Below are positions 6,543-62,374 of a DNA stretch of 64,000 nt, in pieces (positions within the stretch are counted from its first letter, which is position 1; each line of letters begins with the position of its first letter). The translations under genes and the position numbers were made by a program. Under the pieces are notes generated by a model that saw only the letters and a program-made list of their open reading frames with translations, made no database searches and had not been told where the DNA came from. This DNA is from Candidatus Spechtbacterales bacterium (lineage in GTDB: Bacteria > Patescibacteriota > Minisyncoccia > Spechtbacterales > 2-12-FULL-38-22), in assembly GCA_040879145.1 (NCBI GenBank), contig JBBDKX010000036.1:434-64433 (forward strand). The letters run 5' to 3'.

Positions 6543-6691
6543 GGTTTTGTTCGGCTCCGTCTCACAAAAAGTATAAAGTATAGAGTATGAAGTATAAAGG
6601 GTGCTTGTAAAAAGCTTTGCTCTATACTTTATACTGTATACTCTATACCTGAACGAGCGTGAAGCGCGAGTTTTAAGCTCGCGGAGCGAGC

Positions 6692-13024: not shown

Positions 13025-13219
13025 TCAGAACTTGAACCTTCTAGGAGCTTTGATTTCAACAACCATGCGAAGTGCACCAAGCACTCCGGCGATGGCCACG
13101 AAAACGGAAAGGTGCTTTAACATCCACGGGCATACAAATTTCAGAGACACGTACATAGCGCCTCCTGAAACTGCCGCTCCGGCGATGGCCACACCAACAA
13201 CGAACAATATGTTCTTCAT
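13025..13219 (-). CDS. small two-helix membrane protein (64 aa)
   Basis: Strong RBS aaaggaggaaataATG; hydrophobic AIAGAAVSGGA and VFVAIAGVLGAL segments. Confidence 0.45.
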   Translation of the reverse strand: MKNILFVVGVAIAGAAVSGGAMYVSLKFVCPWMLKHLSVFVAIAGVLGALRMVVEIKAPRRFKF

Positions 13220-13547
13220 TATTTCCTCCTTTAGGAAATTTTCTCCCGCTTACTCGTTATTCAGCGGAAAGTTTAAAGAGCTACGATGTTTGTTTAAACA
13301 CCGGGAATGAGTACTTCAACGCGCTGTGCTTGCTCAGTATAAAATATGCAACATTTACTTTTATCCTGAGTTTACCGAAGGACTCCTTCTCGAAGTTTAA
13401 TAAAAAGAACTCTTACGGGAAGAGTTCTTTTTATTATTGCCTCACTCCAGCCGAAGCCAGGGTGGGTAATAGTTGCGAATAAATCGCAGCGCTGTGATTT
13501 AAAACTCTCTCCAAAGTTTTATTCTATTTTAAAGGTGAGTTTGTTTA

Positions 13548-14087: not shown

Positions 14088-14286
14088 GGATTTCTGGTAT
14101 TAATTTTATTCCGTCGTAAGCGGGAATGAGAGAGCTTTGTGCAAATACCCGAAGCGAGTAGAAAAACGGCTCTGCCGCGAGGCCTATCCCGAAGGGTAGC
14201 TGGCGTTTTTCGTAAACGAGCGAGGTTGTCCCGCATTTCTTGAAGCGAACGAATGGCAGCGTGGAATAAAATTATACCAGAAATCC
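14088..14286. ncRNA. structured element with ends pairing (24-bp terminal inverted repeat) around a GC-rich core; copy 1 of 2
   Basis: Shares the core ttttattccgtcgtaagc...gggaatgagRgagctttgtgcaaatacccgaagc...gcgaacgaatggcagc..gtggaataaaat with 57396-57652; the outer stems differ but stay complementary in each copy. Confidence 0.4.
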
Positions 14287-19875: not shown

Positions 19876-20012
19876 TTTAACATACGTACTGCCGATTCTA
19901 GAAACTAAAAACCGGCATAATGAACCGCACCCCATTTAGTGGACACGAAAACGTCCACTTTTTTGTATTTTGATACAAAAGAGAATACAATTAATTCAAT
20001 AAACAAAAAAAT

Positions 20013-20426
20013 ATGAGAAAAGAATTCACCCAGGATGAAATAAGAAGGTTAAACTCCAATGATGGCGTACAGAGCTGTACATCCAAGAGTATAACATTCA
20101 CCGAGACATTTAAAACAAAGGCTCTAAAGAGGTATGCGGATGGCCTAATGCCGATTCAGATATTCAGAGATATGGGCCTGGATGTTAACATAATCGGAAG
20201 AAAAACTCCCAAACGATGCATAGAAAGATGGAGAAAGCAGCTTAAAACAGAAGGTAGCCTTAAAGATAGTCGGGGCAAGCATTCTAAAGGAGGAGGCAGA
20301 AAACCAAAAGAAAAGATACCTAAAGATGAAAAGGAAAGAATAAAGTATCTTGAAGCCAAAGTGGCATATCTTGAGAAAGAGAACGCTTTTTTAGCAAAGC
20401 TCCGGGCCAAAAGAAAGGAGGAGTAA
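20013..20426 (+). CDS. IS3-family transposase OrfA (HTH + leucine zipper)
   Basis: 137 aa with a basic/LZ C-terminus KYLEAKVAYLEKENAFLAKL. Confidence 0.85.
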   Translation: MRKEFTQDEIRRLNSNDGVQSCTSKSITFTETFKTKALKRYADGLMPIQIFRDMGLDVNIIGRKTPKRCIERWRKQLKTEGSLKDSRGKHSKGGGRKPKEKIPKDEKERIKYLEAKVAYLEKENAFLAKLRAKRKEE

Positions 20427-21286
20427 TAATACTCAGGCCGCATCAGAAGTATGCTATTATCAGGAGCATACACAAGAACATTAAGATACTCTGCGAAATA
20501 GCAGAAGTATCAACAAGCGGATACTACAAAAGGCTCAAAACCGCGGATGATAAAGATAAGGACTACGAAGACTATCTGACTATCAAAAAGATATGCCAAA
20601 AAGGCAAAATGAGGTGGGGATATCGCAGAGTATGCATGGAATTAGATGGAAAGATGAACCACAAGAAGATCCTGCGCATAATGAACAAGTACGGACTTCT
20701 GGCAAAAACAAGGAGAGCCAATCCTTACAGGCAGATGGCTAAAAAGACCCAAGAACATAGAACCTTTCCAAATATATTAGATCGCAATTTCAAACAAGAA
20801 CATCCGCGCTCAGTATTTTGCGCAGATATCACATATCTTCCTTTTAATCACCGTTTCGCGTATCTGTCTGCCGTGAAGGACATAGCCACCAAGGAAATCG
20901 TAGCAGCACACCTTTCCATGCACATAGACGTGGAACTGGTGATAAGGACCATGGAAAAGTTCCGTAAAGATTCGTATATGCATAAAGAAGCCCTGATCCA
21001 TTCAGATCAAGGCTTCCATTACACCAATCCGGAGTTCATTGCGCTAACGAAACAGCTTAGATTAACGCAGTCAATGTCTAGAAAAGGAAATTGCATAGAC
21101 AACGCGCCAATAGAATCTTTCTTCGGGCACTTCAAGGATGAGATAGATTACAAGTCATGCAGAACATTTGAAGAATTAGAAATGCTCATTAACAATTACA
21201 TAGACCATTACAACAACGAAAGGAGGCAATGGGAATTAAAAAAGATGACCCCCGTACAATACAGAGATCATCTTTTGATGAAATAG
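20375..21286 (+). CDS. IS3-family transposase OrfB (DDE integrase core), expressed by a -1 frameshift from orfA
   Basis: The -1 frame opens at 20375; slippery heptamer T TTT TTA at 20387-20393; STSGYYKR, HSDQGFHYT and NAPIESFFGHFK motifs. Confidence 0.85.
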   Translation, partial: ERERFFSKAPGQKKGGVIILRPHQKYAIIRSIHKNIKILCEIAEVSTSGYYKRLKTADDKDKDYEDYLTIKKICQKGKMRWGYRRVCMELDGKMNHKKILRIMNKYGLLAKTRRANPYRQMAKKTQEHRTFPNILDRNFKQEHPRSVFCADITYLPFNHRFAYLSAVKDIATKEIVAAHLSMHIDVELVIRTMEKFRKDSYMHKEALIHSDQGFHYTNPEFIALTKQLRLTQSMSRKGNCIDNAPIESFFGHFKDEIDYKSCRTFEELEMLINNYIDHYNNERRQWELKKMTPVQYRDHLLMK

Positions 21287-21338
21287 CCGCTTTTTTATTC
21301 GTGTCCACTAAATGGGGTGCGGTTCATTATGCCGGTTT

Positions 21339-21629
21339 TTAGTTTCTTCTCTGAATTTCCCTGTATACTACTGAGCGATGTTCTATCAATAAAATATATA
21401 TATTGCGCCCGTTTACCTTAAAAATAATCCTGTAATCCCCCACTCTTAATTTTCTATACCCTTTCAAATTTTGCCGCAATGGCTGGCCGAATATTTCAGG
21501 ACGCGTTGAAAGCTTTGTCTCTATGCTCTCTTTGATGCGCTTTTGCCAGATTTTACTTAATTTGGGAATATCTTCAGAAATAACAAGCGGATGATATTCT
21601 ATACTAAACTTACTTCCAGGCATTTTCAT
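21339..21629 (-). CDS. RelE/ParE-family type II toxin
   Basis: LRVGDYRIIFKVNGRNIYILLIEHRSVVY; the stop codon lies inside the IS3 right terminal repeat. Confidence 0.8.
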   Translation of the reverse strand: MKMPGSKFSIEYHPLVISEDIPKLSKIWQKRIKESIETKLSTRPEIFGQPLRQNLKGYRKLRVGDYRIIFKVNGRNIYILLIEHRSVVYREIQRRN

Positions 21630-21834
21630 GCTTTACATATTTTACATTTTTTATATCACGCTTCTCAGCCATCTCGCCTAAAACAATATCCTCTTCAACC
21701 ACAAGCGCTTCTTTCAAAAGTTCAAGTGTTTTTGTGGCAACAGGAACATCGTCCCTCTTGGCAAGGGCTGATAACGCTTTTTCCATTTCCTCAGAAACAG
21801 AAAGATTTATTCTTTTTTTGGTTTTATAAGCCAT
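21610..21834 (-). CDS. ribbon-helix-helix (CopG/RelB-like) antitoxin
   Basis: MAYKTKKRINLSVSEEMEKALSALAKR...; overlaps the toxin start by 20 nt. Confidence 0.7.
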   Translation of the reverse strand: MAYKTKKRINLSVSEEMEKALSALAKRDDVPVATKTLELLKEALVVEEDIVLGEMAEKRDIKNVKYVKHENAWK

Positions 21835-22064: not shown

Positions 22065-22323
22065 CCCTCTATTTAAAATACAGAATTCATTTAGCGGAGC
22101 GTATATTCTCCATATTCGAGGCGTGAGGAGTGAAATGCACAAATGTGCATGAGCGACGAAAACAAAGAATATGGAGAATATACGCCCGCCCTTTGGGAAG
22201 CAAAATAATGCACTGCCTGCTGTGTTGCTCCTCGCTTGCGATACTATGGCATCGCCACACTCGTCGCGCCGTGCATCCAGTGCATTATTTTGCTTCTAAA
22301 GCGTATTCTGTATTTTAAATAGA
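22065..22323. repeat. ~260-bp multi-hairpin palindromic element bounded by 22-bp perfect inverted repeats
   Basis: Outer repeat ccctctatttaaaatacagaat / attctgtattttaaatagaggg; inner 19-bp and 16-bp inverted repeats. Confidence 0.45.
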
Positions 22324-22365
22324 GGGCTAAACGCAGTAGTACGTCAAATTTTAAATTTCCTTTCC

Positions 22366-24024
22366 TTACTTATGGTCTATGTGCTTCATTGCATACTCCA
22401 TACTACTATTCACCTTCTTTCCCGGGTTAAAAATATTTTCGGAATCAAATATATTTTTTGTTTCTTCAAAGAGGTGGTATATTTCCTCGCCGTACATCTG
22501 CTTAAGGTACGGGCTACGTATTAAGCCGTCGTTGTGCTCGGCGGTAATTGACCCTTTATATTCTAAGACCAAGTCATATATCTTTTTGGAAACTATAGGA
22601 ATTTTTGCCCTCTCCTCTTCGCGGCTTAAATCCATCAAAGGAATTATATGAAAGTTTCCGCTTGCCGCATGCCCTGCAATTGTCTCTTTGATTCCGTACT
22701 CTTTTAAAATTGCGTGCACTTTTGGCAAAACCTCGGGCAAATGTTCGGGTTTTACTATAAAATCATCAATAAAAGGCGCTGTTCTTTTTCCTTTTACATG
22801 CTCTCGCAATAAACTAAAACTCTTTCTCCGAATAACAAAGTACTTTTCACTCTCCTCGTTTTCGTACAGATAACGAACCTTCGCGTTATATTTTCCAAGA
22901 ATTTCGCGCGCCTTTTCCAGTTTACGCTCCGCCTCTTCCTCTTCGTTCTCAGCAAATTGGGCAAGTATTATCATTTTTGGCAATTTCATCATACGGAGTG
23001 TAATAAGCGCTTCGGGAATAAATTTAACCAAAAGTGAAAGTAGGTTTTCTCCCGGAACCATTTTTGCAATACTTGGGAAAAACCTCAAAGCCAACTTAAG
23101 TGTCTCATCATCAAAAGCTTCTATCGCCTCCGGTTCCAGCTCCAAAAGTTCGTTTACCATTTGCGGCAACTCTTTAATATCCGGTAAAAATATTGCCGCT
23201 AATTTTGTATAAGGCTCGGGGGTTATAAGTTGTATTTCAGCTTCTGTCATAAAGCCAAGCGTACCCTGCGCGCCAACAAAAATTTGCGCCATGTTAAACT
23301 CCCCTTTTTCTCTGTCCCAAATATCCCAGAGTTTATACCCGGCTGAATTCTTAGCTACATCCGGCTTTGCTTTTTTGATAGCATCGTAATTGTTTTCTAC
23401 GAGCTCATGCATCTTTCTGTAAACTTCGCCCTCAAAGTTGTCTTGAGCTTTTTTGCGTTCTAACTCCTCTTTCATGATTTTTCCAAACTCATACTCATTG
23501 CCGTCCGCCAGTACCATTTTTACCTTATTTACAAATCGCTCCGTTTTTCCATGGCGCGTTGTTTTTTCACCACCCGAATTATTATTTACTATACCCCCCA
23601 TGGCGGCCAAACTCTTTGAGGCCGGGTAAGAAGGCATAAGTAGATTCTTTTCCAAAGTTGCCTTTTCAAAGTCTCTGTAAAAAACTCCCGGCTGTGTGCG
23701 AGCTGTTTTTGTACTCTCATCTATTTCAAAATGATTCATGTGTTCAGTAAAACTAAGCACTACACTCTCAGTAAGCGGACCGCCGGTCATGTCAGTTCCC
23801 GCGGAACGCGCGGTTACAGAAACATCTTTCCCGGCTCTTTTCTGTTCAGCAGCAAACTTAACCGCCGCTTTAACATCGGCGACGTCCTTTGGAAACACAA
23901 CCACAGCGGGCTTAATTTTAAACAAGCTCGCGTCGGTTGAGAATTTCTCAAGAGTGGCATCATCTGTCTTAACTTCTCCTTTTATTAAATTTTTTAAATC
24001 AGATTCTAAATTCATACTTGACAA
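22366..24024 (-). CDS. FAD-binding oxidoreductase (GlcD / D-lactate dehydrogenase-like family)
   Basis: FAD-binding PCMH-type N-terminal region; 552 aa. Confidence 0.8.
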   Translation of the reverse strand: MSSMNLESDLKNLIKGEVKTDDATLEKFSTDASLFKIKPAVVVFPKDVADVKAAVKFAAEQKRAGKDVSVTARSAGTDMTGGPLTESVVLSFTEHMNHFEIDESTKTARTQPGVFYRDFEKATLEKNLLMPSYPASKSLAAMGGIVNNNSGGEKTTRHGKTERFVNKVKMVLADGNEYEFGKIMKEELERKKAQDNFEGEVYRKMHELVENNYDAIKKAKPDVAKNSAGYKLWDIWDREKGEFNMAQIFVGAQGTLGFMTEAEIQLITPEPYTKLAAIFLPDIKELPQMVNELLELEPEAIEAFDDETLKLALRFFPSIAKMVPGENLLSLLVKFIPEALITLRMMKLPKMIILAQFAENEEEEAERKLEKAREILGKYNAKVRYLYENEESEKYFVIRRKSFSLLREHVKGKRTAPFIDDFIVKPEHLPEVLPKVHAILKEYGIKETIAGHAASGNFHIIPLMDLSREEERAKIPIVSKKIYDLVLEYKGSITAEHNDGLIRSPYLKQMYGEEIYHLFEETKNIFDSENIFNPGKKVNSSMEYAMKHIDHK

Positions 24025-24187: not shown

Positions 24188-24347
24188 CAAAAGCCGGTCA
24201 GGGCATCCCACACTTTAAACCCGTATGCTGCGCGCTGCGGGTTCTCTTATTTATATAATGTGGAAATTTTCAGATTTTGACGCAAATCTACCTGCCTGCC
24301 GGCAGGCAGGGGCGCTGACAACGAAATGCACCAAATTTTAAAGTTCA

Positions 24348-28029: not shown

Positions 28030-28165
28030 AGTGCTACCTCCTTCAAGGTACTAACTGACAACATTATATCATACTTTATATAATTTGTCCAGTATTTCTG
28101 GCAAGGACTGTCCTTGCCAGAAAATATATTTCAAAAGTTGTCCAGCACTACCATGAGTCATTAAT

Positions 28166-28184
28166 ACACCGGTCTGACCGGTGT
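28166..28184. promoter_or_regulatory. palindrome ACACCGGTC-N-GACCGGTGT, copy 1 of 3; flanked on both sides by the palindrome ctggcaaggactgtccttgccag
   Basis: Other copies at 28719-28737 and 29351-29369, all intergenic within the small-gene island. Confidence 0.5.
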
Positions 28185-28228
28185 CTGGCAAGGACTGTCC
28201 TTGCCAGACATGCATGCGAGTAAACAAT

Positions 28229-28268
28229 AAAAAGCCCCCGCACTATCCAGCTGGAGTGTGGGGGCGAA
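28229..28268 (-). terminator. rho-independent terminator for the 28278-28616 gene
   Basis: Reverse complement gcccccacactccagctggatagtgcgggggc + ttttt. Confidence 0.6.
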
Positions 28269-28277
28269 TCCCGGATA

Positions 28278-28616
28278 TTATTCCGGGATTATGTCTGACT
28301 TTTTGCAATGTTCTATAAACTTTCGTACAGATTCTTCATACTTTTCCCTGCTAAAATTCGGCATATCTTTCCTAAGATGATAGGGAATATTGCCCTCTAT
28401 AGAAGGTATAACTACCCCACCTCTTTCAAACCTTCTGCGCTCGTTTTGCGGCAAATCCAAAAAAATATCTATATCTTTTTCGGTGTAACCTGTAATTCTG
28501 TATTCCCGCTCAGCACTTTGTACAGGATACGAACGAGAGGGATTTCTTCTAAAAAATTTCCTCAAAATTCTGTGCGCGCACTTTCTCTCATCTCTTCTAA
28601 AAAGACTCATCCGCAA
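28278..28616 (-). CDS. hypothetical basic protein (112 aa)
   Basis: Intact ORF. Confidence 0.5.
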   Translation of the reverse strand: MRMSLFRRDERKCAHRILRKFFRRNPSRSYPVQSAEREYRITGYTEKDIDIFLDLPQNERRRFERGGVVIPSIEGNIPYHLRKDMPNFSREKYEESVRKFIEHCKKSDIIPE

Positions 28617-28685
28617 CTCCTTTATTTATGAACTGCCAATATCATAACAAAAAACCAATCTTAGTCAACCAAATTTTAATATTAA

Positions 28686-28712
28686 ATGGGAAAACCGGTT
28701 TTCCCATTTAAT
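28686..28712. terminator. palindromic hairpin aaatgggaaaaccggttttcccattta (second copy at 40478-40504)
   Basis: Perfect stem; T-rich flanks. Confidence 0.5.
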
Positions 28713-28718
28713 TTTAAA

Positions 28719-28737
28719 ACACCGGTCTGACCGGTGT
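28719..28737. promoter_or_regulatory. palindrome ACACCGGTCTGACCGGTGT, copy 2
   Basis: Identical to copies 1 and 3. Confidence 0.5.
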
Positions 28738-28789
28738 AAAAAAAGCCCCGCACGTTGAAGTTTGGGGCTTCTTGTGCGGGGCTAAAGAG

Positions 28790-29224
28790 CTATGTAAGTG
28801 CGATTTTGGATCCGTTTGAAAGTATCCAGAATACAAAATCGTTTTCTGGGATTCCAATCTTAGCTCCAACTTCGCGGAGTCGCTTGTGAATCTTTTCCGG
28901 AACAGTGCCGGTTTGTGATTCCACGCCCAGAATCGCATTTACAAGATTCGCAAAAAGGTTGAGGGACGCTGCCTCCTCCTGCGTCATACCTACTTCAAGA
29001 CGTTTACTGACCAGAGTCCGCTTCAGTTCCCAAGCGGGACCTTCTTCCGTCTGACGATGGCGCGCGCCCAATCTCTCAAGAGCGCCTCTGATCTTTCGCT
29101 CTGCAGATGCTAAATTGCCCTCCAGCGATTCCACTTTACAGGAGTAGGATTCATGCAAATTGTTCCTGTTGTCAAGAACGTGATGTAGGTGACCCCATTC
29201 CTCAACGGTGAGTTGAATTTTCAT
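28790..29224 (-). CDS. hypothetical protein (144 aa), GC-rich
   Basis: RBS gaaaggaaaaagaATG; a terminator hairpin at 28740-28788 follows. Confidence 0.5.
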   Translation of the reverse strand: MKIQLTVEEWGHLHHVLDNRNNLHESYSCKVESLEGNLASAERKIRGALERLGARHRQTEEGPAWELKRTLVSKRLEVGMTQEEAASLNLFANLVNAILGVESQTGTVPEKIHKRLREVGAKIGIPENDFVFWILSNGSKIALT

Positions 29225-29350
29225 TCTTTTTCCTTTCTTCGGGTTTTGCAAATACTGCGAAAAGTATATCACAGTTAAACTAAAAAATCAAGTTTCAGTT
29301 TTAATTCTCGGCAATTTTTATATTTGGATGCAATTCTAAAAATCATTAAT

Positions 29351-29369
29351 ACACCGGTCTGACCGGTGT
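29351..29369. promoter_or_regulatory. palindrome ACACCGGTCTGACCGGTGT, copy 3
   Basis: Identical to the other copies. Confidence 0.5.
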
Positions 29370-29431
29370 ATAGCAAGGTCGGTACTTAAAAAAGATCTGC
29401 CGAAGCAACTACATCTTTCTCAAATACTGCC

Positions 29432-29510
29432 CTGTGTAACTATTTTTAATTTTGCTAACTTCTTGCGGTGTGCCTTGTGCTACGACATACCCGCCCTCAT
29501 CACCTCCTTC
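29432..29510 (-). repeat. orphan duplicate of the last ~78 bp of uvrA (encodes ...[10 protein letters not shown])
   Basis: 78/79 identical to 29889-29967 (the true uvrA 3' end); flanks the GIY-YIG insert. Confidence 0.85.
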
Positions 29511-29575
29511 CCGATTTTGTTCAAATCTACGATTTGACCCAAAATCGTGGATCCTCGATTTCTCAACAACAGTTG

Positions 29576-29854: not shown

Positions 29855-32689
29855 CTATTGATTTAGGACCTTTCGGAGGTATTGACCAGTGTAACTATTT
29901 TTAATTTTGCTAACTTCTTGCGGTGTGCCTTGCGCTACGACATACCCGCCCTCATCACCTCCTTCCGGTCCTAAATCAATCAAATGGTCGGCGTTTTTCA
30001 CAATATCCAGATTGTGCTCTATAACCAAAACTGAATTTCCTGTTGTAACAAGATCTTTAAGTACGCTTAAAAGTTTATTTACATCATCGGGATGCAGTCC
30101 TGTTGTGGGCTCGTCCAAAATATACAGAGTTTGTCCCGTTCCCCTGCGCGCAAGCTCTGTCGCAAGCTTTACCCTTTGCGCCTCCCCTCCGGAGAGCTGT
30201 GGCGCGGGCTGGCCTAAATGAATATACCCAAGTCCTACCTGAGCCAAAACATCCAGCTTGTTACGAACATAGGGTATGTTTTCAAAAAACTCGCGGGCTT
30301 CATCTACTGTCATCTCCAAAACATCGTGAATATCTTTTCCTTTGTATTTTATTTCCAAAACTTCTTTGTTATATCTTTTCCCTCCGCATGTTTCACACTC
30401 CACATAAATATCGCTCATAAAAAACATTTCTACCTTTGTTACTCCCCCACCCCTGCAACGCGAACACCTGCCACCTTTTACATTAAAGCTAAAACGACCA
30501 GGCTTATATCCACGTGCCCGCGATTCAGGAAGCCCCGCAAAAAGTTCACGAACCGGAGTAAACACATTTGTATAGGTTGCGGGATTACTGCGAGGCGTTC
30601 TGCCTATGGGCGACTGATCAATTACAATAGCTTTATCCAGATTATGCAAACCGATGATGCTTTTATGCTCGCCGGGCATGGTGTGCGCGCCGTGAAACTC
30701 TCGCCTTAATACTTTTGCCATAACATCATTTACAAGCGAACTCTTGCCCGAACCCGAAACACCTGTTATTGCAACAAGTTTGCCGAGCGGAATTTTCACA
30801 TCAATGTTTTTTAAATTATTGTGCCTTACTCCCTTAACGGTTAGATATTTTTGCGCATTACTTTTATTTTTTGGAATTTGAGCTTTGACATTTGACATTG
30901 GCATACGTTCGCCTACACGGCGTTTGCCATTCATATATTCCCCCGTCAGCGATTTAGATTTAAGGAGTTGATTATAAGTTCCCTCAAAAACAACCTCTCC
31001 CCCGTGTTTTCCCGCACCCGGACCAATATCTATAATATAGTCTGCTTCTTTTATGGTTAGCGTGTCGTGTTCTACGACCAAAACACTGCTACCCAAATCC
31101 CGCAACTCCTTCATGGTATCTATAAGGCGCTTTTGGTCCCGTGCGTGAAGACCGATTGAGGGTTCGTCCAAAATATACAAGACCCCGGCAAGATGTGAAC
31201 CCAGTTGTGTCGCAAGTTGAATGCGCTGCGCCTCTCCCCCGGACAAAGTTCCGGCCTGACGGGACAAAGTTAGGTAGTGCAACCCTACTCTACGCAAAAA
31301 ATTAAGCCTGTTGACTACCTCTTTAACTACCGGCTCCATTATCTTTTTTTCCGCGCTATTAAAATCTTTACTGTTAGGCAATTCAGAAAAAAAGACGTGC
31401 GCGTCATTAATGTGGTAGCTTACAACATCGTAAATGTTTTTACCTGCTATTTTTACAGACAGGGCTTCTTTTTTAAGACGCTTACCCTGACAAGCGGGAC
31501 AGTTGCGAATATTCATATATTTTTCTATCTCCGCGCGAGTGTGCTCACTCTCAGTCTCCTTGTGCCTGCGTTCCAAATTAGGTATTACGCCTTCCAGGTT
31601 TTCATCTCCGTAAAGTACAATATCCAAAGCTGACTTAGGCAAATCTTTTATCCTCACACTCATTGAAAAACCATACTTTTGACTCATCCTGTGGAGTATC
31701 GTCCAATACCATCCCTGGCGGCCAACCCTATGCGAAGCCATCATCCAAGGACGTATAGCTCCCTCATCCAGTGTTAAGTTTTTATTCGGCACAACAAGCT
31801 CAGGGTCAACTTCCATCTTTGTACCGAGGCCCGAACACTCGGGGCAAGCGCCGTAAGGACTATTAAATGAAAAAGTGCGCGGTTCTACCTCGCGCATGCT
31901 AAACCCGCACTTAGGACAAGCAAACTTTTCAGAAAAAACATGCTCGTCATACACAGGTTGAACCTGTGTATTTTTATGTAAAACTATTAGCTGTCCCTTT
32001 CCTATCTTTAAGGCCGTTTCTATGGAATCTAAAAGCCGTATTTTATCAAGCTCCTTTTCTATTTCCAACTTATCTACAACAACATCTATTGAGTGCTTTT
32101 TCTTAGGATCCAATTCTTTCCCCAATGCTTCTGCGAACGCCATGATAGTGCCGTCAACCCGCGCACGCACAAAACCCGCACTTCCAACCTCTTCTAAAAT
32201 TGCCTTATGCTCACCCTTCTTTCCTGAAACAAGAGGTGCTAAAATCACAACTTCGCCCTTCAGTTTTTTAACTGTTTCCGATATTTCCTGTGGACTGGAT
32301 GCCTCAATTAAAATATTACAATTAGGACAATACGGCTTTCCAATATGCGCAAACAAGAGCCGTAAATAATCGTATATTTCTGTTATCGTGCCCACCGTTG
32401 AACGTGGATTTTTGGAAACCGTCTTTTGGTCTATCGCGATTGCGGGAGAAATACCCTCAATGCTGTCCACTTCCGGCTTATCCATGACACCCAAAAACTG
32501 CCTGGCGTAACTTGAAAGTGATTCTACATAACGTCTTTGGCCTTCCGAATATATGGTGTCAAAAACAAGTGAGCTTTTACCTGAACCGCTTACACCCGTA
32601 AAAACCACAAGACTATTCTTGGGAACATCAATATCTATATTCTTTAAATTGTGGGTTTTAGCGCCCTTTATTTTTAGTTTATTGGTCAT
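29855..32689 (-). CDS. uvrA: excinuclease ABC subunit A
   Basis: Two ABC ATPase modules (GVSGSGKSSL twice); zinc fingers CPKCGFSMREVEPRTFSFNSPYGACPEC; 944 aa. Confidence 0.95.
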   Translation of the reverse strand: MTNKLKIKGAKTHNLKNIDIDVPKNSLVVFTGVSGSGKSSLVFDTIYSEGQRRYVESLSSYARQFLGVMDKPEVDSIEGISPAIAIDQKTVSKNPRSTVGTITEIYDYLRLLFAHIGKPYCPNCNILIEASSPQEISETVKKLKGEVVILAPLVSGKKGEHKAILEEVGSAGFVRARVDGTIMAFAEALGKELDPKKKHSIDVVVDKLEIEKELDKIRLLDSIETALKIGKGQLIVLHKNTQVQPVYDEHVFSEKFACPKCGFSMREVEPRTFSFNSPYGACPECSGLGTKMEVDPELVVPNKNLTLDEGAIRPWMMASHRVGRQGWYWTILHRMSQKYGFSMSVRIKDLPKSALDIVLYGDENLEGVIPNLERRHKETESEHTRAEIEKYMNIRNCPACQGKRLKKEALSVKIAGKNIYDVVSYHINDAHVFFSELPNSKDFNSAEKKIMEPVVKEVVNRLNFLRRVGLHYLTLSRQAGTLSGGEAQRIQLATQLGSHLAGVLYILDEPSIGLHARDQKRLIDTMKELRDLGSSVLVVEHDTLTIKEADYIIDIGPGAGKHGGEVVFEGTYNQLLKSKSLTGEYMNGKRRVGERMPMSNVKAQIPKNKSNAQKYLTVKGVRHNNLKNIDVKIPLGKLVAITGVSGSGKSSLVNDVMAKVLRREFHGAHTMPGEHKSIIGLHNLDKAIVIDQSPIGRTPRSNPATYTNVFTPVRELFAGLPESRARGYKPGRFSFNVKGGRCSRCRGGGVTKVEMFFMSDIYVECETCGGKRYNKEVLEIKYKGKDIHDVLEMTVDEAREFFENIPYVRNKLDVLAQVGLGYIHLGQPAPQLSGGEAQRVKLATELARRGTGQTLYILDEPTTGLHPDDVNKLLSVLKDLVTTGNSVLVIEHNLDIVKNADHLIDLGPEGGDEGGYVVAQGTPQEVSKIKNSYTGQYLRKVLNQ

Positions 32690-32849
32690 AAATTTATAGG
32701 AGTTAGGCTTTAGCTTTTTAGCTTCTTAGACGTTATTTTTGTTTTTCCTACAAAGCTAAGAACCTAACTCCTAAGACCTACTCACGAAGTAAGCATACCA
32801 TTATACAGTGTTGTCAATAGTTAATCAAGTAGTGTACAATATGTCCGCA

Positions 32850-34255: not shown

Positions 34256-34615
34256 ATGTTGTTTACTTCAGTGCTAAAAATAGTTGTTAACGCGTTTGCC
34301 ATATACTTGGCATCTTTGCTTTTAGACGGCGTACAACTAAATATACCGAACGAATCACAGTGGCAGTATTACGCTATCTTCGCTTTAATTGGTTTTGTAA
34401 TATGGTTTGGCAATACAGTAATAAAGCCGGTTCTTAAAGTATTGACTTTTCCGCTCATTCTTGTAACATTCGGTTTGTTCAATGTTGTGCTTAACATGCT
34501 TATTTTGTGGGGTGCAGACCTACTGCTTCCTCAATTAGAAATAACAGGATTTCTAACTCTGTTGTGGGCATCATTAATAGTTTCATTTATTAACGGCTTA
34601 CTATTTTTTATATAG
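34256..34615 (+). CDS. DUF360 / phage-holin-4-like small membrane protein
   Basis: 4 TM helices; GtrA/YvlD-like topology. Confidence 0.55.
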   Translation: MLFTSVLKIVVNAFAIYLASLLLDGVQLNIPNESQWQYYAIFALIGFVIWFGNTVIKPVLKVLTFPLILVTFGLFNVVLNMLILWGADLLLPQLEITGFLTLLWASLIVSFINGLLFFI

Positions 34616-34730
34616 CTCGCTTCGCCTGCCTGTGCGTGAACGCACGCAGACAGGCTCGCAGGTATCAGGTTTTAGGTTTTAGGTATTAGACTAATATCTA
34701 ATACTTAGTGCTTAAAACCTATTTGTGAAC
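34615..34730 (+). repeat. intergenic repeat family R2 copy (gctcgcttcgc + GC hairpin cctgcctgtgcgtgaacgcacgcagacagg + AT-rich aggtatYaggttttag hairpin)
   Basis: Homologous copies at 36988-37100 (+), 42132-42275 (-), 55128-55262 (-) and 58796-58913 (-). Confidence 0.65.
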
Positions 34731-34740
34731 GAAGTTAACT

Positions 34741-34825
34741 CCGACGCTATCAAAATCTTTGATTTTGTTATAGCGTCGAGGATCCACGATACCGCAAGCG
34801 AATCAAAGATTCGGGTGGTATCGGG
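34741..34825 (+). promoter_or_regulatory. double-hairpin leader element (E3) immediately 5' of secG
   Basis: GACGCTAT[CAAAATCtttGATTTTG]ttATAGCGTC and CGATACCGCaag[CGAATCaaaGATTCG]ggtGGTATCG; about 97% identical to 37108-37195. Confidence 0.6.
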
Positions 34826-34833
34826 GCAAATAC

Positions 34834-35061
34834 ATGGATTTAAAAAACATTCTTCTAATTGCGCAGGTAATAATATCTATCGCGCTAATGACAACAATAC
34901 TACTCCAAAGAAGAGGCGCAAGCCTTGGGGCTACCTTTGGAGGTGGCGGCGGAGGAGGATACTACCAAAAAAGAGGGGCAGAAAAACTGCTTTTTAATGC
35001 GAGTATCGTGCTTTCTATGCTATTTATAGGAATAGCTTTTGTAATACTTGTGATCTCATAG
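34834..35061 (+). CDS. secG: preprotein translocase subunit SecG
   Basis: 75 aa, two TM helices and a Gly-rich loop (GATFGGGGGGGYY), as in SecG. Confidence 0.75.
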   Translation: MDLKNILLIAQVIISIALMTTILLQRRGASLGATFGGGGGGGYYQKRGAEKLLFNASIVLSMLFIGIAFVILVIS

Positions 35062-35136
35062 TTTGCTACGTTCATATAACATAGGTCGTATAACGTATAA
35101 CATCGCGCTTGCTTCGCGAGCACCTAAAAATGTTCT

Positions 35137-36987: not shown

Positions 36988-37100
36988 GCTCGCTTCGCCT
37001 GCCTGTGCGTGAACGCACGCAGACAGGCTCGCAGGTATTAGGTTTTAGCTTTTAGGTATCAGACTAGTACCTAGTACCCACAACCTATTTTGTGAGGTGG
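36988..37100 (+). repeat. R2 repeat copy upstream of pgi
   Basis: gctcgcttcgcctgcctgtgcgtgaacgcacgcagacaggctcgcaggtattaggttttagcttttaggtatcag... Confidence 0.65.
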
Positions 37101-37107
37101 AGCGAAT

Positions 37108-37195
37108 CCCGACGCTATCAAAATCTTTGATTTTGTTATAGCGTCGAGGATCCACGATACCGCAAGCGAATCAAAGATTCGGGCGGTATCGGGAC
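37108..37195 (+). promoter_or_regulatory. double-hairpin leader element (E3), copy 2, immediately 5' of pgi/pmi
   Basis: Same two nested hairpins as 34741-34825. Confidence 0.6.
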
Positions 37196-37201
37196 AAAAA
37201 C

Positions 37202-38206
37202 ATGAATGAAAAAAATATAGACTCGTATAATATGAGGCAAATAATACTGGACTTTCCCAGGCAGTTCCCCGTCGGGTACGGTGCAGTTGGTGATGCGGGA
37301 AAAGAATTTACAAGCAAAGAGTTTAAAAACATAATTATCGCGGGAATGGGAGGGTCAGCGCTTGCGGGGGAGGTTTTAACACTTCTTTCAGGAGCATTAA
37401 AACTTCAACTACCTGTGTTTATACATCGAGATTACGGATTAAGCTCTATGGCAAACAAAAACAGTCTTATTGTAACCCTATCCTACTCAGGTAATACAGA
37501 GGAAACTCTTTCCGTGTATCAGGCAGCCAAAGAAAAGGGTATAACGCTTGCGGTTATTACAAGCGATGGAAGTCTTAAGCAGATGGCCAAAAAAGACAAA
37601 AAACCTTTAGCAATTGTGCCCGAGGGTATCCCCCCTCGCCTCGCAATTGGATATCAATTTTCTGCTCTTTTGGCTATACTTTCAAATGTGGGGATAATTG
37701 AACCAAAAGAAGATGTGGTGCAAAAAATATCCTCTGAGTTGAAATCCGCTGAAGTAATGAGTCTCGCAAAAGAATTGGTGGGTGAGATAAAAGAAAAAAC
37801 TCCCATAATATACTCATCCAAGGCAAATAGTCCCCTTGCATACATAATGAAGATACAGATAAACGAGAACGCGAAAAGACACGCTTTTTATAACTCGTTT
37901 CCGGAACTTAATCACAATGAAATACTGGGATACGAAAACTCAAACCCCGACAACTTCTTTGTCTTTATGTTGCGGGATAAAAACGACCACCCGAAAAATC
38001 AAAGAAGAATGGAAATAACAGCCAGACTGCTTGAAAAAAGAAAGTACAAAGTTAAATTTATTGACATTGAGGGTGAAAATATGTATAATAGAGCTTTCAA
38101 TGCCATACTTTTTGGCACTTGGCTCTCATATTATTTAGCTATACAAGATAGTATAGACCCCACTCCTGTTACCCTGATAAAAGAAATTAAACGCTCGCTC
38201 AGTTAA
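37202..38206 (+). CDS. bifunctional phosphoglucose/phosphomannose isomerase (SIS domain)
   Basis: IIIAGMGGSALAGEVL SIS motif; archaeal-type PGI/PMI family length. Confidence 0.75.
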   Translation: MNEKNIDSYNMRQIILDFPRQFPVGYGAVGDAGKEFTSKEFKNIIIAGMGGSALAGEVLTLLSGALKLQLPVFIHRDYGLSSMANKNSLIVTLSYSGNTEETLSVYQAAKEKGITLAVITSDGSLKQMAKKDKKPLAIVPEGIPPRLAIGYQFSALLAILSNVGIIEPKEDVVQKISSELKSAEVMSLAKELVGEIKEKTPIIYSSKANSPLAYIMKIQINENAKRHAFYNSFPELNHNEILGYENSNPDNFFVFMLRDKNDHPKNQRRMEITARLLEKRKYKVKFIDIEGENMYNRAFNAILFGTWLSYYLAIQDSIDPTPVTLIKEIKRSLS

Positions 38207-38301
38207 AACTTCGCTCTCTTTAGCTTTCAACTTCTGGCTTTTGAACCATTGCGTCAAAGGCGCAATATAAGCTAACAAGCTAAAAGCTATAAGCTAACTC
38301 T

Positions 38302-38385
38302 GCGCAGATGGCGGAATCGGTAGACGCGCTACGTTCAGAACGTAGTGGGCGCAAGCCCGTGGAGGTTCAAGTCCTCTTCTGCGCA
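38302..38385 (+). tRNA. tRNA-Leu (anticodon CAG), type II with a long variable arm
   Basis: GCGCAGA acceptor; GGCGGAATCGGTAGACGC D-arm; CTACG-TTCAGAA-CGTAG anticodon arm; GGAGGTTCAAGTCCTCT T-arm. Confidence 0.9.
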
Positions 38386-38387
38386 CA

Positions 38388-38544
38388 ATTTAACGAAGTG
38401 AAATTGAGAGTAGGAGAGGATGCAGAACCTCAGGAAGGGGTCCCACCAGAGGCGGGCAAGCAGGCCTGCCTGCCGGCTCGCCTCGCTCTCTCGGCGGAGC
38501 GGGCAGGCAGGGAAGCGGGGGGAGTCCTCTTCTGCGCACATGTA
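38388..38544 (+). repeat. GC-rich ~140-bp insert ending in an 18-bp direct repeat of the tRNA-Leu 3' end (agtcctcttctgcgcaca)
   Basis: Contains the CCTGCCTGCC...GGGCAGGCAGG palindrome (38465-38511); an attL/attR-like duplication. Confidence 0.6.
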
Positions 38545-40453: not shown

Positions 40454-40500
40454 AGTTTGATATTTATATTTTGACTAAATGGGAAAACCGGTTTTCCCAT

Positions 40501-40656
40501 TTATTTTAACTCTTCCAAGGTATCCAAAAGCTCCTTTTCTTTACTTTCAAGCAATTCTTCACTACGAGCATCAACTATTAACCGTAACTTCGCCTCCGTA
40601 TTAGATGCGCGAAGCAAAAAGCTCCAATCGGGATACTCAACACGCAACCCGTCCAT
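40501..40656 (-). pseudogene. remnant of a second, diverged phosphohexomutase C-terminal domain (DGLRVEYPDWSFLLRASNTEAKLRLIVDA...)
   Basis: Homologous to the pgm C-terminus (DGARVNFEELEGWGLVRVSNTGPNLTLRFEA) but only ~45% identical; no N-terminal domains. Confidence 0.45.
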
Positions 40657-42131: not shown

Positions 42132-42275
42132 AGATTTTATTTCGGCTCTACCTCACAAAATAGGTATTAGGTTTTAGCTATTAGGTATTACACTAGTGTA
42201 GCACCTAATAGCTAAAACCTAATACCTGCGAGCCTGTCTGCGTGCGTTCACGCATAGGCAGGCGAAGCAAGCTTG
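42132..42275 (-). repeat. R2 repeat copy upstream of pgm, with a perfect 25-bp inverted repeat AGGTATTAGGTTTTAGCTATTAGGT
   Basis: Reverse complement gcttcgcctgcctatgcgtgaacgcacgcagacaggctcgcaggtattaggttttagctattaggt... Confidence 0.65.
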
Positions 42276-42872: not shown

Positions 42873-43485
<613 letters not shown>

Positions 43486-47982: not shown

Positions 47983-47989
47983 TTTGTTC

Positions 47990-48110
47990 GGCTTCGCATC
48001 ACAAAACAAGATTACACTGATAATAACTGATACCACTGATGATTTTTACATGCATCAGCGTAATCAGCCATTATCTGTGATATCTAAGCGAGCGAAGCGA
48101 GCTTAGCGAG
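47990..48110 (-). repeat. degenerate R1-like repeat upstream of ftsK (3 x CTGAT direct + 3 x ATCAG inverted at ~10-bp phase, then the gagcgaagcgagc head)
   Basis: cactgataataactgataccactgatgatttttacatgcatcagcgtaatcagccattatctgtgat ... aagcgagcgaagcgagcttagcgagc. Confidence 0.5.
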
Positions 48111-51746: not shown

Positions 51747-51779
51747 ATTTTTGTTCCTACCTGCGCCGCATTATGCAAC

Positions 51780-51903
51780 GCGGCAGGCAGGCACTTCGTT
51801 CACATTAACCGCTGATATATGCTGATTTTGCGGATTTTATGCTGATAACATCCGCATCTATCTGCTTTTATCCGCATTAATCCGCGGTTTAAGCGAAGCG
51901 AGC
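51780..51903 (-). repeat. R1 repeat copy C, occupying the rpoB-rpoC intergenic spacer
   Basis: Reverse complement taagctcgcttcgcttaaaccgcggattaatgcggataaaagcagatagatgcggatgttatcagcataaaatccgcaaaatcagcatatatcagcggttaatgtgaacgaag. Confidence 0.65.
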
Positions 51904-55127: not shown

Positions 55128-55262
55128 CCTGCCTGCGCCGGCTACGCTAGCGCGGCAGGCAGGTTGCTTAGCCTTACAAGTAGGTTTTAGGTACTAGGGG
55201 TTAGGTATTAGTCTAATACCTAAAAGCTAAAACCTGATACCTGCTCGCGAAGCGAGCTTAAT
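55128..55262 (-). repeat. R2-like repeat upstream of rpoB (a variant lacking the inner GC hairpin but with an adjacent cctgcctgcgcc...gcggcaggcagg hairpin)
   Basis: Reverse complement gctcgcttcgcgagcaggtatcaggttttagcttttaggtattagactaatacctaacccctagtacctaaaacctac. Confidence 0.6.
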
Positions 55263-55912: not shown

Positions 55913-56296
55913 CTATTGAAAAACATAAATCGCGCGCAGTACATTGTTAGTCATCCCTGTTATCTCATCATAAAAACGGCCTCTCATGGTCAAAATATAT
56001 TGAAGTTCGTCAATATTCGCCTCTATGCTTGCTTCTTCTTCAAGCTCCTTGACGGCTGCAGTTTCAAAGCTATCACCTATCTCAACATGCCCGCCAACCG
56101 AAGCGTCAAGCAAATCGGGATATGTATCCTTATCTTTAGCCCTGTGTTGGAATATTATTTTACAATCCGGAGTATACAACCATACGTGCACCTCTCTGTG
56201 CAATAAACCCTTTTCGTGTATATCCTCTCTTGTTGCCTCACCAATTATTTCTCCTTTTTTATTTACAATATTTAATTTTTCGCCATCTTTAGTCAT
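55913..56296 (-). CDS. Nudix hydrolase
   Basis: Nudix box GGHVEIGDSFETAAVKELEEEASI. Confidence 0.8.
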   Translation of the reverse strand: MTKDGEKLNIVNKKGEIIGEATREDIHEKGLLHREVHVWLYTPDCKIIFQHRAKDKDTYPDLLDASVGGHVEIGDSFETAAVKELEEEASIEANIDELQYILTMRGRFYDEITGMTNNVLRAIYVFQ

Positions 56297-56332
56297 AATC
56301 TTATAATAACAAAAACCCCGCCTTGTGCGGGA

Positions 56333-56967: not shown

Positions 56968-57018
56968 ATTTTCAAAAATTAATATTATATAAGCTACACT
57001 ATATAATCTGCGCCGTTC

Positions 57019-57081
57019 GAAAAAAGAAATAAATTTTAAGAAAAAAGCAAGCTTTTTTCTTAAAATTTATTTCTTTTTTGC
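57019..57081. promoter_or_regulatory. 63-bp near-perfect palindrome (29-bp arms) upstream of the phd/doc-like operon
   Basis: gaaaaaagaaataaattttaagaaaaaagc aag gcttttttcttaaaatttatttcttttttgc. Confidence 0.55.
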
Positions 57082-57185
57082 TCGCTATCCTCGATTATAA
57101 TAACATTATAATATATGCAGGAATGCTGTCAATAGCTTACGCTTACCACAAGTACTCTTCTTGGGCACCAAACGCCTCGCCCGCC

Positions 57186-57295
57186 GTGTATATCCTCTCT
57201 TGTTGCCTCACCAATTATTTCTCCTTTTTTATTTACAATATTTAATTTTTCGCCATCTTTAGTCATACTCTTATTATACTAAAAAACCGCCCTCT
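57186..57295 (-). repeat. orphan duplicate of the Nudix gene 5' end (start codon + first ~26 codons, 85 bp identical to 56216-56300)
   Basis: gtgtatatcctctcttgttgcctcaccaattatttctccttttttatttacaatatttaatttttcgccatctttagtcata present twice. Confidence 0.8.
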
Positions 57296-57395
57296 TAGGC
57301 AGTCAGGCTTTTCAGATTTTGAATTAGTTCTATATCGCAAAAATTCTAAGATTTGCTTACACTCAACTCAACCAAGGCCGGAAACAGCAACCATT

Positions 57396-57652
57396 TTATT
57401 CCGTCGTAAGCCCGTCTCGCCTGAGGCTTGCCGAGGTGGACGGGAATGAGGGAGCTTTGTGCAAATACCCGAAGCTTATAAGAAAAGGGTCTTGCCTTTA
57501 GGCCTATCTTTTGCGTGTGGGCAAAAGTAGCTGTCGCTTTTCCGTTAAGTAAGCGAGGTTTACCCGCCGAAGCCTTGGCGTAGGCTGGGCTGTATTTGCC
57601 AAAGCGAGCGAATGGCAGCCTGCCTGCCGGCAGGCAGGCGTGGAATAAAATG
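57396..57652. ncRNA. structured element copy 2 (same core as 14088-14286), with a 14-bp terminal inverted repeat and an embedded CCTGCCTGCCGGCAGGCAGG palindrome
   Basis: Conserved blocks ttttattccgtcgtaagc, gggaatgagggagctttgtgcaaatacccgaagc, aggcctatc, gcgaatggcagc, gtggaataaaat. Confidence 0.4.
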
Positions 57653-57675
57653 GTTACTATTGGAGGCTAAATCAC

Positions 57676-58788: not shown

Positions 58789-58795
58789 AAAAAAG

Positions 58796-58913
58796 TTTTA
58801 GGTTTTAGGTATTAGGTACTAGGTTCTAGATATTAGTCTAATCCCTAAAAGTTAAAACCTGGTACCTGCGAGCCTGTCTGCGTGCGTTCACGCACAGGCA
58901 GGCGAAGCGAGCC
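58796..58913 (-). repeat. R2 repeat copy immediately upstream of the rodA/ftsW start
   Basis: Reverse complement gctcgcttcgcctgcctgtgcgtgaacgcacgcagacaggctcgcaggtaccaggttttaacttttagggattagactaatatctagaacctagtacctaatacctaaaacctaaaac. Confidence 0.65.
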
Positions 58914-59793: not shown

Positions 59794-59883
59794 TATATAA
59801 AACCTTCTAATACATCCTTATACTATCATAAATTTAAATGTTGATTAATAGAAAAATCAACCAAAATAAAAAAACAGATATAA

Positions 59884-59989
59884 GGCGTCTACCTACTTTC
59901 CCAGCGCGAAGCTAGTATCATCGGCCTTAGAGGATTTCACTGCCGTGGTCGGAATGGGAACGGGTGGAGCACCTCCAGCATAAACGCCT
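59884..59989 (-). rRNA. rrf: 5S ribosomal RNA
   Basis: Reverse complement ...cccgttcccattccgaccacggcagtgaaatcctctaaggccgatgatactag...; terminal stem ggcgtc/gacgcc. Confidence 0.9.
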
Positions 59990-60043
59990 TATATCTGTTT
60001 TTTTGTTTTTATTAACACGAACAAAACCTAAAAAGTTATTCAA

Positions 60044-60060: not shown

Positions 60061-60415
60061 GCGGTTGAAACACTGACCGCTTTCCCTCTGTGTTTGTAAA
60101 AACACAGAGGTATGACTATTAGTACTACTCAGCTTAACCCCTCTCAGGGCTTACACTTATAGCCTATCAACCTGTTAGTCTAACAGGAGTCTAAGAGCTC
60201 TAATCTTGAGGCGGGCTTCGTGCTTATATGCTTTCAGCACTTATCCCTTCCGAACATAGCTACCCAGCGATGCTCCTGGCGGAACAACTGGTACACCAGA
60301 GGTTCGTTCACTCCGGTCCTCTCGTACTAGGAGCGAGTCCCCTCAAAGCTCAAGCGCCCACGGAAGATAGGGACCAACCTGTCTTGCGACGGTCTGAACC
60401 CAGCTCGCGTAGCGT

Positions 60416-60451
<36 letters not shown>

Positions 60452-60481
60452 CCAGCCCCAGGATACGCCGAGCCGACATCG

Positions 60482-61492: not shown

Positions 61493-61541
<49 letters not shown>

Positions 61542-62341: not shown

Positions 62342-62374
<33 letters not shown>

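Follow-up and report, generated by a model that had tools for sequence, protein, structure and literature searches.

The 64,000-nt stretch analysed here (the window) was taken from a Candidatus Spechtbacterales genome (contig JBBDKX010000036.1 of assembly GCA_040879145.1), a member of the candidate phyla radiation (CPR)/Patescibacteria with a G+C content of ~40% in the window, and contains five copies of a short modular repeat, R2, in the spacers or leaders upstream of secG, pgi, pgm, rpoB and rodA. Together with the other elements that share the two ends of R2, ten such repeats are present in 64 kb, all of them non-coding and about 95–150 nt long (Table 1). These were compared with ~160 kb of sequence from relatives, mainly nine related genomes that each span part of a conserved gene stretch (loci labelled L011–L021, of which L020 is GCA_040900345.1). 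NCBIfam models match pgi (bifunctional PGI/PMI), pgm, rpoB, rodA and uvrC, and Pfam models match the genes of L31, prfA, L25, SSB, S18, recA, ftsK and RNase J, while the NCBIfam match of S6 is slightly below the curated cutoff. The names given to the downstream genes in an earlier, sequence-only reading of this DNA are thus borne out for pgi, pgm, rpoB and rodA; secG (34834–35058) gave no family-model match in the fragment scanned, and its name rests on the reading of its translation.

Copies and modules of the R2 family

All five R2 copies proposed by the sequence-only reading were found where it had placed them, and a profile hidden Markov model built from them recovered the same five and no more in the 64 kb (nhmmer, E 1.3e-39 to 2.6e-23), with the copies' own palindromic reverse-strand hits and one weak match at 32698–32790 (E 0.0085) as its only other matches. 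Related hairpins had also been suggested between uvrA and uvrC, where a real fold exists (z −4.3) but head and tail are missing, and before the tRNA-Leu gene (38250–38300), where the signal is weak (z −1.8 and −2.3). The R2 copies are 94–132 nt long and each folds far more stably than its shuffles (z −4.2 to −8.8). The head, GCTCGCTTCGC, occurs 12 times in the window with at most one mismatch, against 0.83 expected, a count that none of 100 shuffles reached. No open reading frame (ORF) of at least 100 aa is confined to the elements, and three inspected stop codons in the AT-rich hairpin (TAG, TAG and TAA) occupy two of the three reading frames.

Conservation within R2 declines from 5′ to 3′. 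The head, GC module and junction are 45/45 to 43/45 identical (96–100%) across four copies, followed by identities of 76–97% in the left arm and 62–82% in the right arm (alignment of the five copies at 34615–34733, 36988–37105, 42143–42272, 55164–55257 and 58795–58912). As previously described, the rpoB copy has no GC hairpin and carries GCTCGCTTCGCGAGC instead, and the arms of the pgm copy are perfect over 25 nt. The right arm of this copy matches its own variant left arm, as though one arm had been re-templated from the other. The earlier placement of the element's end beside the start codon applies to a canonical tail in the pgm copy only, where the ATG comes 9 nt after GCCGAA: a two-hairpin module of ~105 nt, D3, intervenes in the secG and pgi copies, a GC hairpin (55128–55163) intervenes in the rpoB copy, and the rodA copy has no canonical tail. 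The two D3 copies are 94% identical, the repeat of the first extending a few codons into secG, and the R2+D3 composite is duplicated at about 93–94% identity. At the position matching the GC hairpin before rpoB, the relative L019 carries CCTGCCTGTTGGCAGGCAGG.

Table 1. Positions of R2 copies, related elements and isolated modules in the window.
Feature	Coordinates	Strand	Setting and sequence
R2 copy 1	34615–34735	+	Between holin-like gene and secG
Head of copy 1	34615–34625	+	Initial G shared with the upstream TAG, as its last base
GC hairpin of copy 1	34625–34654	+	
Junction of copy 1	34655–34665	+	CTCGCAGGTAT
AT-rich hairpin of copy 1	about 34660–34722	+	
Tail variant of copy 1	34725–34735	+	GTGAACGAAGT
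D3 copy 1	34741–34850	+	Two hairpins, between R2 tail and secG ATG (34834)
R2 copy 2	36988–37106	+	0 nt past TAA of ABC substrate-binding-protein gene, upstream of pgi; shortened right arm
Tail of copy 2	37090–37106	+	TTGTGAGGTGGAGCGAA
D3 copy 2	37109–37218	+	Between R2 copy 2 and pgi ATG (37202)
R2 copy 3	42141–42272	−	pgm 5′ UTR, 9 nt upstream of pgm ATG (42131); head variant GCTTGCTTCGC; perfect 25-bp arms
Tail of copy 3	42141–42156	−	
R2 copy 4	55164–55257	−	rpoB leader; no GC module; tail GTAAGGCTAAGCAA
Head self-hairpin of copy 4	55243–55257	−	GCTCGCTTCGCGAGC
GC palindrome module	55128–55163	−	CCTGCCTGCCGCG...CGCAGGCAGG; between R2 copy 4 and rpoB ATG (55116)
R2 copy 5	58795–58912	−	2 nt past TAA of 292-aa hypothetical gene, ends 6 nt before rodA ATG (58788); right arm a (CCTAnnA)5 array; canonical tail missing
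R1	1901–2021	+	Fills L31–prfA spacer; head 0 nt past TAA; GCGGAT/GATAA-word hairpin; tail GCCGAACAG, then ATG; GCCGAA ends 3 nt before ATG
R1	42873–42994	+	S6–SSB spacer
R1-like	47987–48110	−	Fills rpoC–ftsK spacer, from TAG to GCCGAACAAA directly before ATG (47982)
R1 (51793–51903) with GC palindrome (51756–51791)	51756–51903	−	Fills rpoB–rpoC spacer
R3	6550–6691	−	Upstream of L25 gene; head hairpin GCTCGCTCCGCGAGC, second head-like segment, canonical tail; interior AGGTATA/GAGTATA 7-nt-word hairpin
Solo head hairpin	35107–35121	+	GCTTGCTTCGCGAGC; 15 nt upstream of substrate-binding-protein gene ATG; one sense-strand U·G pair
AT-rich hairpin	32698–32775		TTAGG/TTAGC words; divergent uvrA/uvrC spacer; without head or tail
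Solo GC palindrome	24291–24310		CCTGCCTGCCGGCAGGCAGG
Solo GC palindrome, second copy	57619–57638		
GC palindrome with longer loop	38465–38511		
GC palindrome with longer loop	43564–43623		

The head/tail superfamily

The head (in its best description GCTCGCTTCGC[TCGC]) and the tail GTGAGGnnRAGCCGAA (or GTGAACGAAG) are common to R2, to four copies of R1 (1901, 42873, 48110 and 51903; 85% identical to each other) and to R3 (6691). The GC palindrome CCTGCCTG...CAGGCAGG occurs alone (24291, 57619), with other loop contents (38465, 43564, 51756, 55128) and nested in the R2 head, and deletion of the GC hairpin from R2, GCTCGCTTCG[CCTGCC...CAGACAGG]CTCGC, nearly regenerates the R1 head GCTCGCTTCGCTCGC. 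The GC hairpin is therefore regarded as an independent palindrome nested in the head and, since four copies show identical nesting and two consist of R2 with D3, the composites must have propagated as units. The separability of modules suggested by the sequence-only reading is well supported by these arrangements and by the relative L018, in which a minimal core, GCTTGCTCCGTTCGC-TTTGATTTT-GTGAGGCTAAGCCGAAC, has no long hairpin.

Folding predictions pair head with tail in R1, in R3, in the R2 copies at secG, pgi and pgm and in the elements of L018, L019 and L021, through imperfect stems of about 9–12 bp that contain G·U pairs, one of them in the recurrent UCGC/GUGA contact. With this pairing each element would form one long imperfect hairpin holding a family-specific AT-rich hairpin inside. 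The sequence-only reading included neither the head–tail pairing nor a family older and wider than the source genome. The arms of the inner hairpins are built of tandem ~7-nt words (AGGTWTY in R2, NAGTATA in R3), with lag-7 autocorrelations of 0.59–0.84 in the R2 and R3 arms of the window. Arrays of ~7-nt words are also present in L014 (21270–21316) and L019 (2570–2606), and of 8-nt words in L021 (14525–14568); across unrelated hairpin families and genomes the lag-7 autocorrelation is 0.51–0.84, slippage being the sole explanation offered.

All 14 head/tail elements, 10 in the window and 4 in relatives, are co-oriented with their flanking genes. The pgm R2 copy (−) and the ssb R1 copy (+) lie ~600 bp apart in opposite orientations, each matching its own gene, indicating that orientation follows transcription and not replication. 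For eight intercistronic elements, the distance between the upstream stop codon and the start of the head is −1 to +4 nt, and the ATG lies 0–12 nt from the tail or A-rich end of R1, R3 and the pgm copy. The sites filled by the elements, which extend from the preceding stop codon or the leader nearly to the following ATG, are 1–20-nt spacers or short 5′ untranslated regions (UTRs) in most sampled relatives. Two R2 copies (pgm, rpoB) occupy 5′ UTRs that follow no ORF. To the left of the pgm copy, the ancestral leader and a conserved −10 (ggtatcataa; promoter-like site 42318–42291) are kept, a conserved leader hairpin with a T-run is kept to the left of the rpoB copy, and in relatives both leaders run directly into the ATG. 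A mechanical ORF listing runs into the elements at GTG 48036 (ftsK), GTG 42979 (SSB) and TTG 42273 (S6), so automatic gene calls may be extended wrongly here.

The nine related genomes, each with partial coverage, preserve the gene order of the window (hypothetical gene, rodA, rpoB, rpoC, ftsK, a helix-turn-helix (HTH) gene, recA, S18, SSB, S6 and the divergent pgm). In the four closest by RpoB (82–86% identity; L011, L016, L017 and L012/13, the last counted as one genome), spacers at the covered junctions measure 1–37 nt, or 55 nt at ftsK–HTH in L012, and contain no element modules apart from single relaxed-pattern hits in L012. The sister-genome comparison that the sequence-only reading had in mind therefore reveals presence/absence polymorphism at orthologous sites, the elements being absent from these four genomes and present with other interiors in L014, L018, L019 and L021. 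Between rpoB and rpoC, six relatives have a spacer of 1–9 nt, L017, L018 and L019 one of 37–48 nt, and L020 one of 218 nt that belongs to another repeat family.

Among the carriers, L021 has TAATTAAACTCGCCTTGCTCGC, an ACTAAAT-word hairpin and TTTTTGTGAACGAAGTGAACAAAAAATATG between S6 and SSB, with the junction, ends and flank (TAATTAA) of the window R1 and a different hairpin. Similarly, the rpoC–ftsK junction of L019 holds AGCTCGCCAAAGCTTCGC, a GCGAATGAT-word hairpin and TGTGAGCTTGCGAACAAAATG, sharing junction and ends with the window element, and its rpoB is preceded by the CCTGCCTG palindrome and then GAAATAAAAT. In L014 the SSB–S18 spacer consists of TAA, GTTCGCTTCGCGAAC, an AGTAAC-word hairpin and ...GTGAATAAAAAATTATG. 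Element interiors are more alike within one genome than between elements at orthologous junctions of different genomes. On a neighbour-joining tree of RpoB, carriers lie on either side of the non-carriers, so that the superfamily predates the lineage of the window and is patchily distributed.

Spacer colonisation seems common in the order Spechtbacterales. L020 contains intercistronic repeat families of its own (13217–13440, 21576–21784 and 22268–22528), such as TAAAGTAGGTACTTGACGAACG..., which follows two stop codons, and CCCCGCACCTTT...AAAGGTGCGGGG palindromes are common to L020, including the 218 nt between its rpoB and rpoC, and L018 (9770–10005). In public genome contigs the pattern GCTCGCTTCGCN{2,32}GCAGGTAYYAGG gave one chance Pseudomonas match only. 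The R2 GC/junction 24-mer and the head...tail superfamily pattern had zero matches each in public metagenome contigs, and viral contigs yielded zero for the first pattern and 8 chance matches without heads for the second. Nothing in the literature searched describes repeats of this sort from CPR, Patescibacteria or Spechtbacteria.

Origin of the elements and comparison with known repeats

The reading that we favour, at a probability of roughly 60%, is that R2 is one family in a superfamily of palindromic, modular, non-autonomous repeats of the type of miniature transposable elements with inverted repeats (MITEs), bacterial interspersed mosaic elements (BIMEs) and BOX elements, which colonise short transcribed spacers. 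The conserved ends would serve copying, via transposition or gene conversion, and the interiors would turn over by nesting, slippage of heptamer arrays and re-palindromisation. The elements would be co-transcribed into mRNA, and the orientation rule would reflect a survivorship filter by selection. In sense orientation a hairpin followed by an A-rich, start-proximal stretch would not terminate transcription, and in antisense orientation a GC-based stem followed by the U-rich complement of A-rich gene ends would be terminator-like within essential operons; the antisense head hairpin followed by TTAATTTAAA was indeed flagged as terminator-like. The repeat family is new, but its kind, small mobile intergenic repeats, is already known, and it is not a new type of system. 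CPR/Patescibacteria genomes are thought to be small, streamlined and repeat-poor, and the window nevertheless holds about ten structured repeats, including one between rpoB and rpoC, genes separated by just a few nucleotides in most of the relatives sampled. Were the elements selfish, they would show that great compactness does not protect a genome from colonisation when one orientation is harmless to transcription and translation.

By analogy of design, BOX elements appear to be the closest known repeats, and the resemblance drawn by the sequence-only reading is upheld as a likeness of that kind. BOX elements of Streptococcus (boxA-boxB(n)-boxC) are also composite, with end modules that pair and a separable middle that may be missing or multiplied; their transcripts are predicted to fold, and they occur alongside other repeat families and form new module combinations in related species (PMC3049150). 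Head/tail pairing, an optional GC module and a long hairpin that varies or is absent correspond to the BOX design in R2. R2 differs in its unrelated host, in its location between co-directional genes or in 5′ UTRs, and in a middle that is a 7-nt-word hairpin and not tandem boxB.

The elements likewise resemble prokaryotic MITEs (Correia/NEMIS, ERIC) in being ~100–150 nt long and non-coding, with imperfect inverted ends (the rodA copy lacking its tail) and a whole-element hairpin, and in having many dispersed copies, presence/absence between related genomes and co-transcription with neighbours (PMC10969869, PMC3184786, PMC2229807). Unlike MITEs, they show no consistent target-site duplication at the sites compared and have no parent insertion sequence (IS) sharing their ends in the window, follow absolute rules of orientation and position, and are tolerated in essential operons (rpoB–rpoC). 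With repetitive extragenic palindromes (REP/BIME, REPIN-RAYT) they share a short GC palindrome, here CCTGCCTGCCGGCAGGCAGG, placed in extragenic, transcribed mosaics with long-hairpin units (PMC3184786), but this palindrome has no conserved GTAG-type head and the AT-rich word hairpins have no REP counterpart. No RAYT/Y1 transposase turned up among the 40 window proteins scanned, and the tracking of transcription and not replication speaks against single-strand transposition at the replication fork, unlike in REPIN-RAYT. The mycobacterial interspersed repetitive units that Supply et al. are said to have described in 1997 are reportedly intercistronic in operons, co-oriented and abutting the flanking stop and start codons, like the elements here; they reportedly consist of tandem 46–101-bp units with short ORFs overlapping the flanking stop and start, whereas the elements here are single palindromes. 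Two further cases offer analogies of process only, with different hosts and sequences: hairpin repeats in sponge mitochondria are reported to invade compact organelle genomes in a manner comparable to spacer colonisation (PMC2800124), and a Porphyromonas MITE with an internal minisatellite is reported as a small inverted-repeat element with a tandem-repeat interior (PMC4596501).

Several observations weigh against mobile repeats as the explanation. Comparison of filled and empty sites gives no consistent target-site duplication; the 5′ flank is in most cases (T)AA and the 3′ flank CAA/TAA-like, its A-rich stretch being inseparable from either element or ancestral sequence. No transposase or parent IS with matching ends occurs in the window, which is all that was covered of the source genome, and its only IS, of the IS3 family, has unrelated ends beginning TGAACCGCACCCC and was rejected as the mobilising parent. 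Neither perfect co-orientation nor stop-to-start placement is usual among MITEs, and pneumococcal repeats are, by contrast, over-represented between convergent genes (PMC3049150). The head and tail are conserved between genomes in which neutral sites are expected to be saturated, and the same junctions are occupied, which could point to a host function. Finally, the 5′-to-3′ conservation gradient among the R2 copies is not predicted by uniform neutral decay.

The IS3-family element lies at ~19920–21335 (+), with an HTH_Tnp_2 ORF (20013–20426), an rve integrase ORF (20609–21286) and long inverted ends formed by CCGGCATAATGAACCGCACCCCATTTAGTGGACACGAA and its reverse complement; a ParE-type toxin gene (21339–21629) lies alongside.

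The strongest of the alternatives, which we consider possible though unlikely, is that these are host intercistronic RNA elements, in which the head/tail clamp and long hairpin set processing (e.g. by RNase III on the 25–35-bp helix), segmental stability, or coupling by the proximity of stop and start codons. The strict sense orientation and the close spacing of heads to stop codons, and of tails or A-rich ends to start codons, speak for this explanation, and the RNA-unfolding model of translational coupling, in which a terminating ribosome melts a stem and frees a ribosome-binding site, is established for ~50-nt spacers (PMC12548453). Moreover, the recurrent head/tail G·U pairs (UCGC with GUGA) form on the sense RNA only, the head hairpin has one compensatory C-G to U-A change (window versus L014) and one U·G variant, the ends are kept across genomes at 78–80% rpoB identity, and shared junctions hold differing inserts that still form hairpins (z −4.2 to −6.2). 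The G·U pairs, the compensatory change, the U·G variant and the retention of hairpin-forming interiors at shared junctions are in favour of some RNA-level constraint, and functional ends would provide a first handle on mRNA processing or translational coupling in an uncultivated phylum.

A host RNA function is harder to reconcile with the absence of the elements from the covered junctions of the four closest relatives, or with the lack of covariation when the five R2 copies are compared (not one of 31 consensus pairs is compensatory). No strand asymmetry was detected: 34 G·U pairs are predicted for the folded sense strand versus 29 for the folded antisense strand, and folding energies are mixed, a near-equality of strands that the neutral decay of a DNA palindrome predicts. 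Masking 15 nt after the stop codon, an in silico imitation of the coupling clamp, does not consistently raise the unpaired probability at −20 to +3 and hence does not consistently free the ribosome-binding region, and four of the five R2 copies have no tail beside the ATG, with two copies in 5′ UTRs that no ORF precedes. Promoters are not enriched in the elements (26 found versus 25.4 expected; 36 versus 27.1). Known RNA families, ribozymes and introns were rejected, since Rfam 15 has no match over the elements at gathering thresholds, and at E ≤1 only eukaryotic miRNA-precursor hairpins appear, at sub-threshold scores (14–36 bits versus thresholds of 64–500).

A further possibility, which seems doubtful, combines an old core with exchangeable interiors. 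The head/tail core would be an ancient, host-integrated intercistronic RNA module inherited at rpoC–ftsK, S6–SSB and the rpoB leader, and its apical loop an exchange site for hypervariable heptamer-word hairpins, replaced again and again and homogenised in each genome by gene conversion through the ends or by transcription-linked copying. If so, the elements would represent a new class of orientation-locked, stop-to-start cassette spacer, and not an ordinary transposon, in which structure is kept while sequence turns over.

It is improbable that the elements act as DNA-level sites for a protein of the nucleoid, of replication or of recombination, whether as palindromes prone to form cruciforms or as arrays with the ~7-nt words as binding units. 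The strong 7-nt periodicity in arms of unrelated families and genomes and the similar folding of both strands are consistent with such sites, but orientation follows transcription across the strand switch near pgm, the elements are confined to transcribed spacers, and the words differ fully between families and genomes, so that no single binding specificity is conserved.

Rho-independent termination of upstream genes, to which stable hairpins that often start right after stop codons might point, is very hard to sustain, as the sequence-only reading had anticipated: no terminator was called on the sense strand of R2, the hairpins are followed by UAUUUUGUGAGG or further modules and not by a T-run, every element carries a start-proximal tail or additional modules, two copies are located in 5′ UTRs past promoters where no gene precedes them, and one R1 separates rpoB from rpoC, genes 1–9 nt apart in six relatives (37–48 nt in three others).

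An assembly artefact, with repeats collapsed or chimerically joined, can be discounted almost entirely, even though the source is a metagenome-assembled genome and assemblies fail at repeats: gene order over every element-bearing junction matches the nine related genomes where covered, which excludes misassembly, every copy differs from the rest, and a separate Logan assembly (L001, a 1741-nt contig from SRR27977663 with an identical pgm gene) has the identical R2–pgm junction. The L001 contig has its start within the GC module of R2, which fits a repeat present in several copies, and in practical terms such repeats break short-read assemblies.

Integron attC sites were rejected since the ends read GCTCGCTTCGC (5′) and GCCGAAC(AAAA) (3′), not RYYYAAC/GTTRRRY, the genes on either side are not cassettes but housekeeping genes whose order is conserved, and no integrase was found among the proteins scanned for it. 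Retrons, group II introns and TIGR-arrays were rejected on anatomy (conserved housekeeping order, core sites absent, copies dispersed and not tandem).

Other repeats and scars in the window

Other sequences in the window bear traces of insertion or duplication. Two direct copies of 18 nt from the 3′ end of tRNA-Leu (AGTCCTCTTCTGCGCACA; 38370–38387 and 38523–38540) enclose about 135 nt with a GC hairpin of the CCTGCCTG type and a segment resembling the tail, AACGAAGTGAA, an arrangement that looks like an insertion scar in the tRNA 3′ end. Further palindromic families at 28097–29390 and 40476–40507, namely ACACCGGTCTGACCGGTGT (3 copies), TCTGGCAAGGACTGTCCTTGCCAGA (2 exact copies and a weaker one at 40668) and TAAATGGGAAAACCGGTTTTCCCATTTA (2 copies), lie mostly at gene 3′ ends, and some are terminator-like. 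Fragments duplicated at 81–94% identity (29415–29511 versus 29870–29966; 56215–56323 versus 57185–57293; 14121–14188 versus 57441–57508) include one that repeats the 3′ end of uvrA a short way downstream of that gene, and a 708-nt gap (56968–57675) contains copies of sequences from elsewhere; all these may be remains of pseudogenes or scars left by recombination. CPR bacteria typically have interrupted rRNA genes, and the 23S rRNA gene of the window (60099–63597, −), adjoined by the 5S rRNA (59880–59991), spans ~3.5 kb where the model has 2.9 kb and holds a group I intron at 60493–60884 (51 bits, threshold 50).

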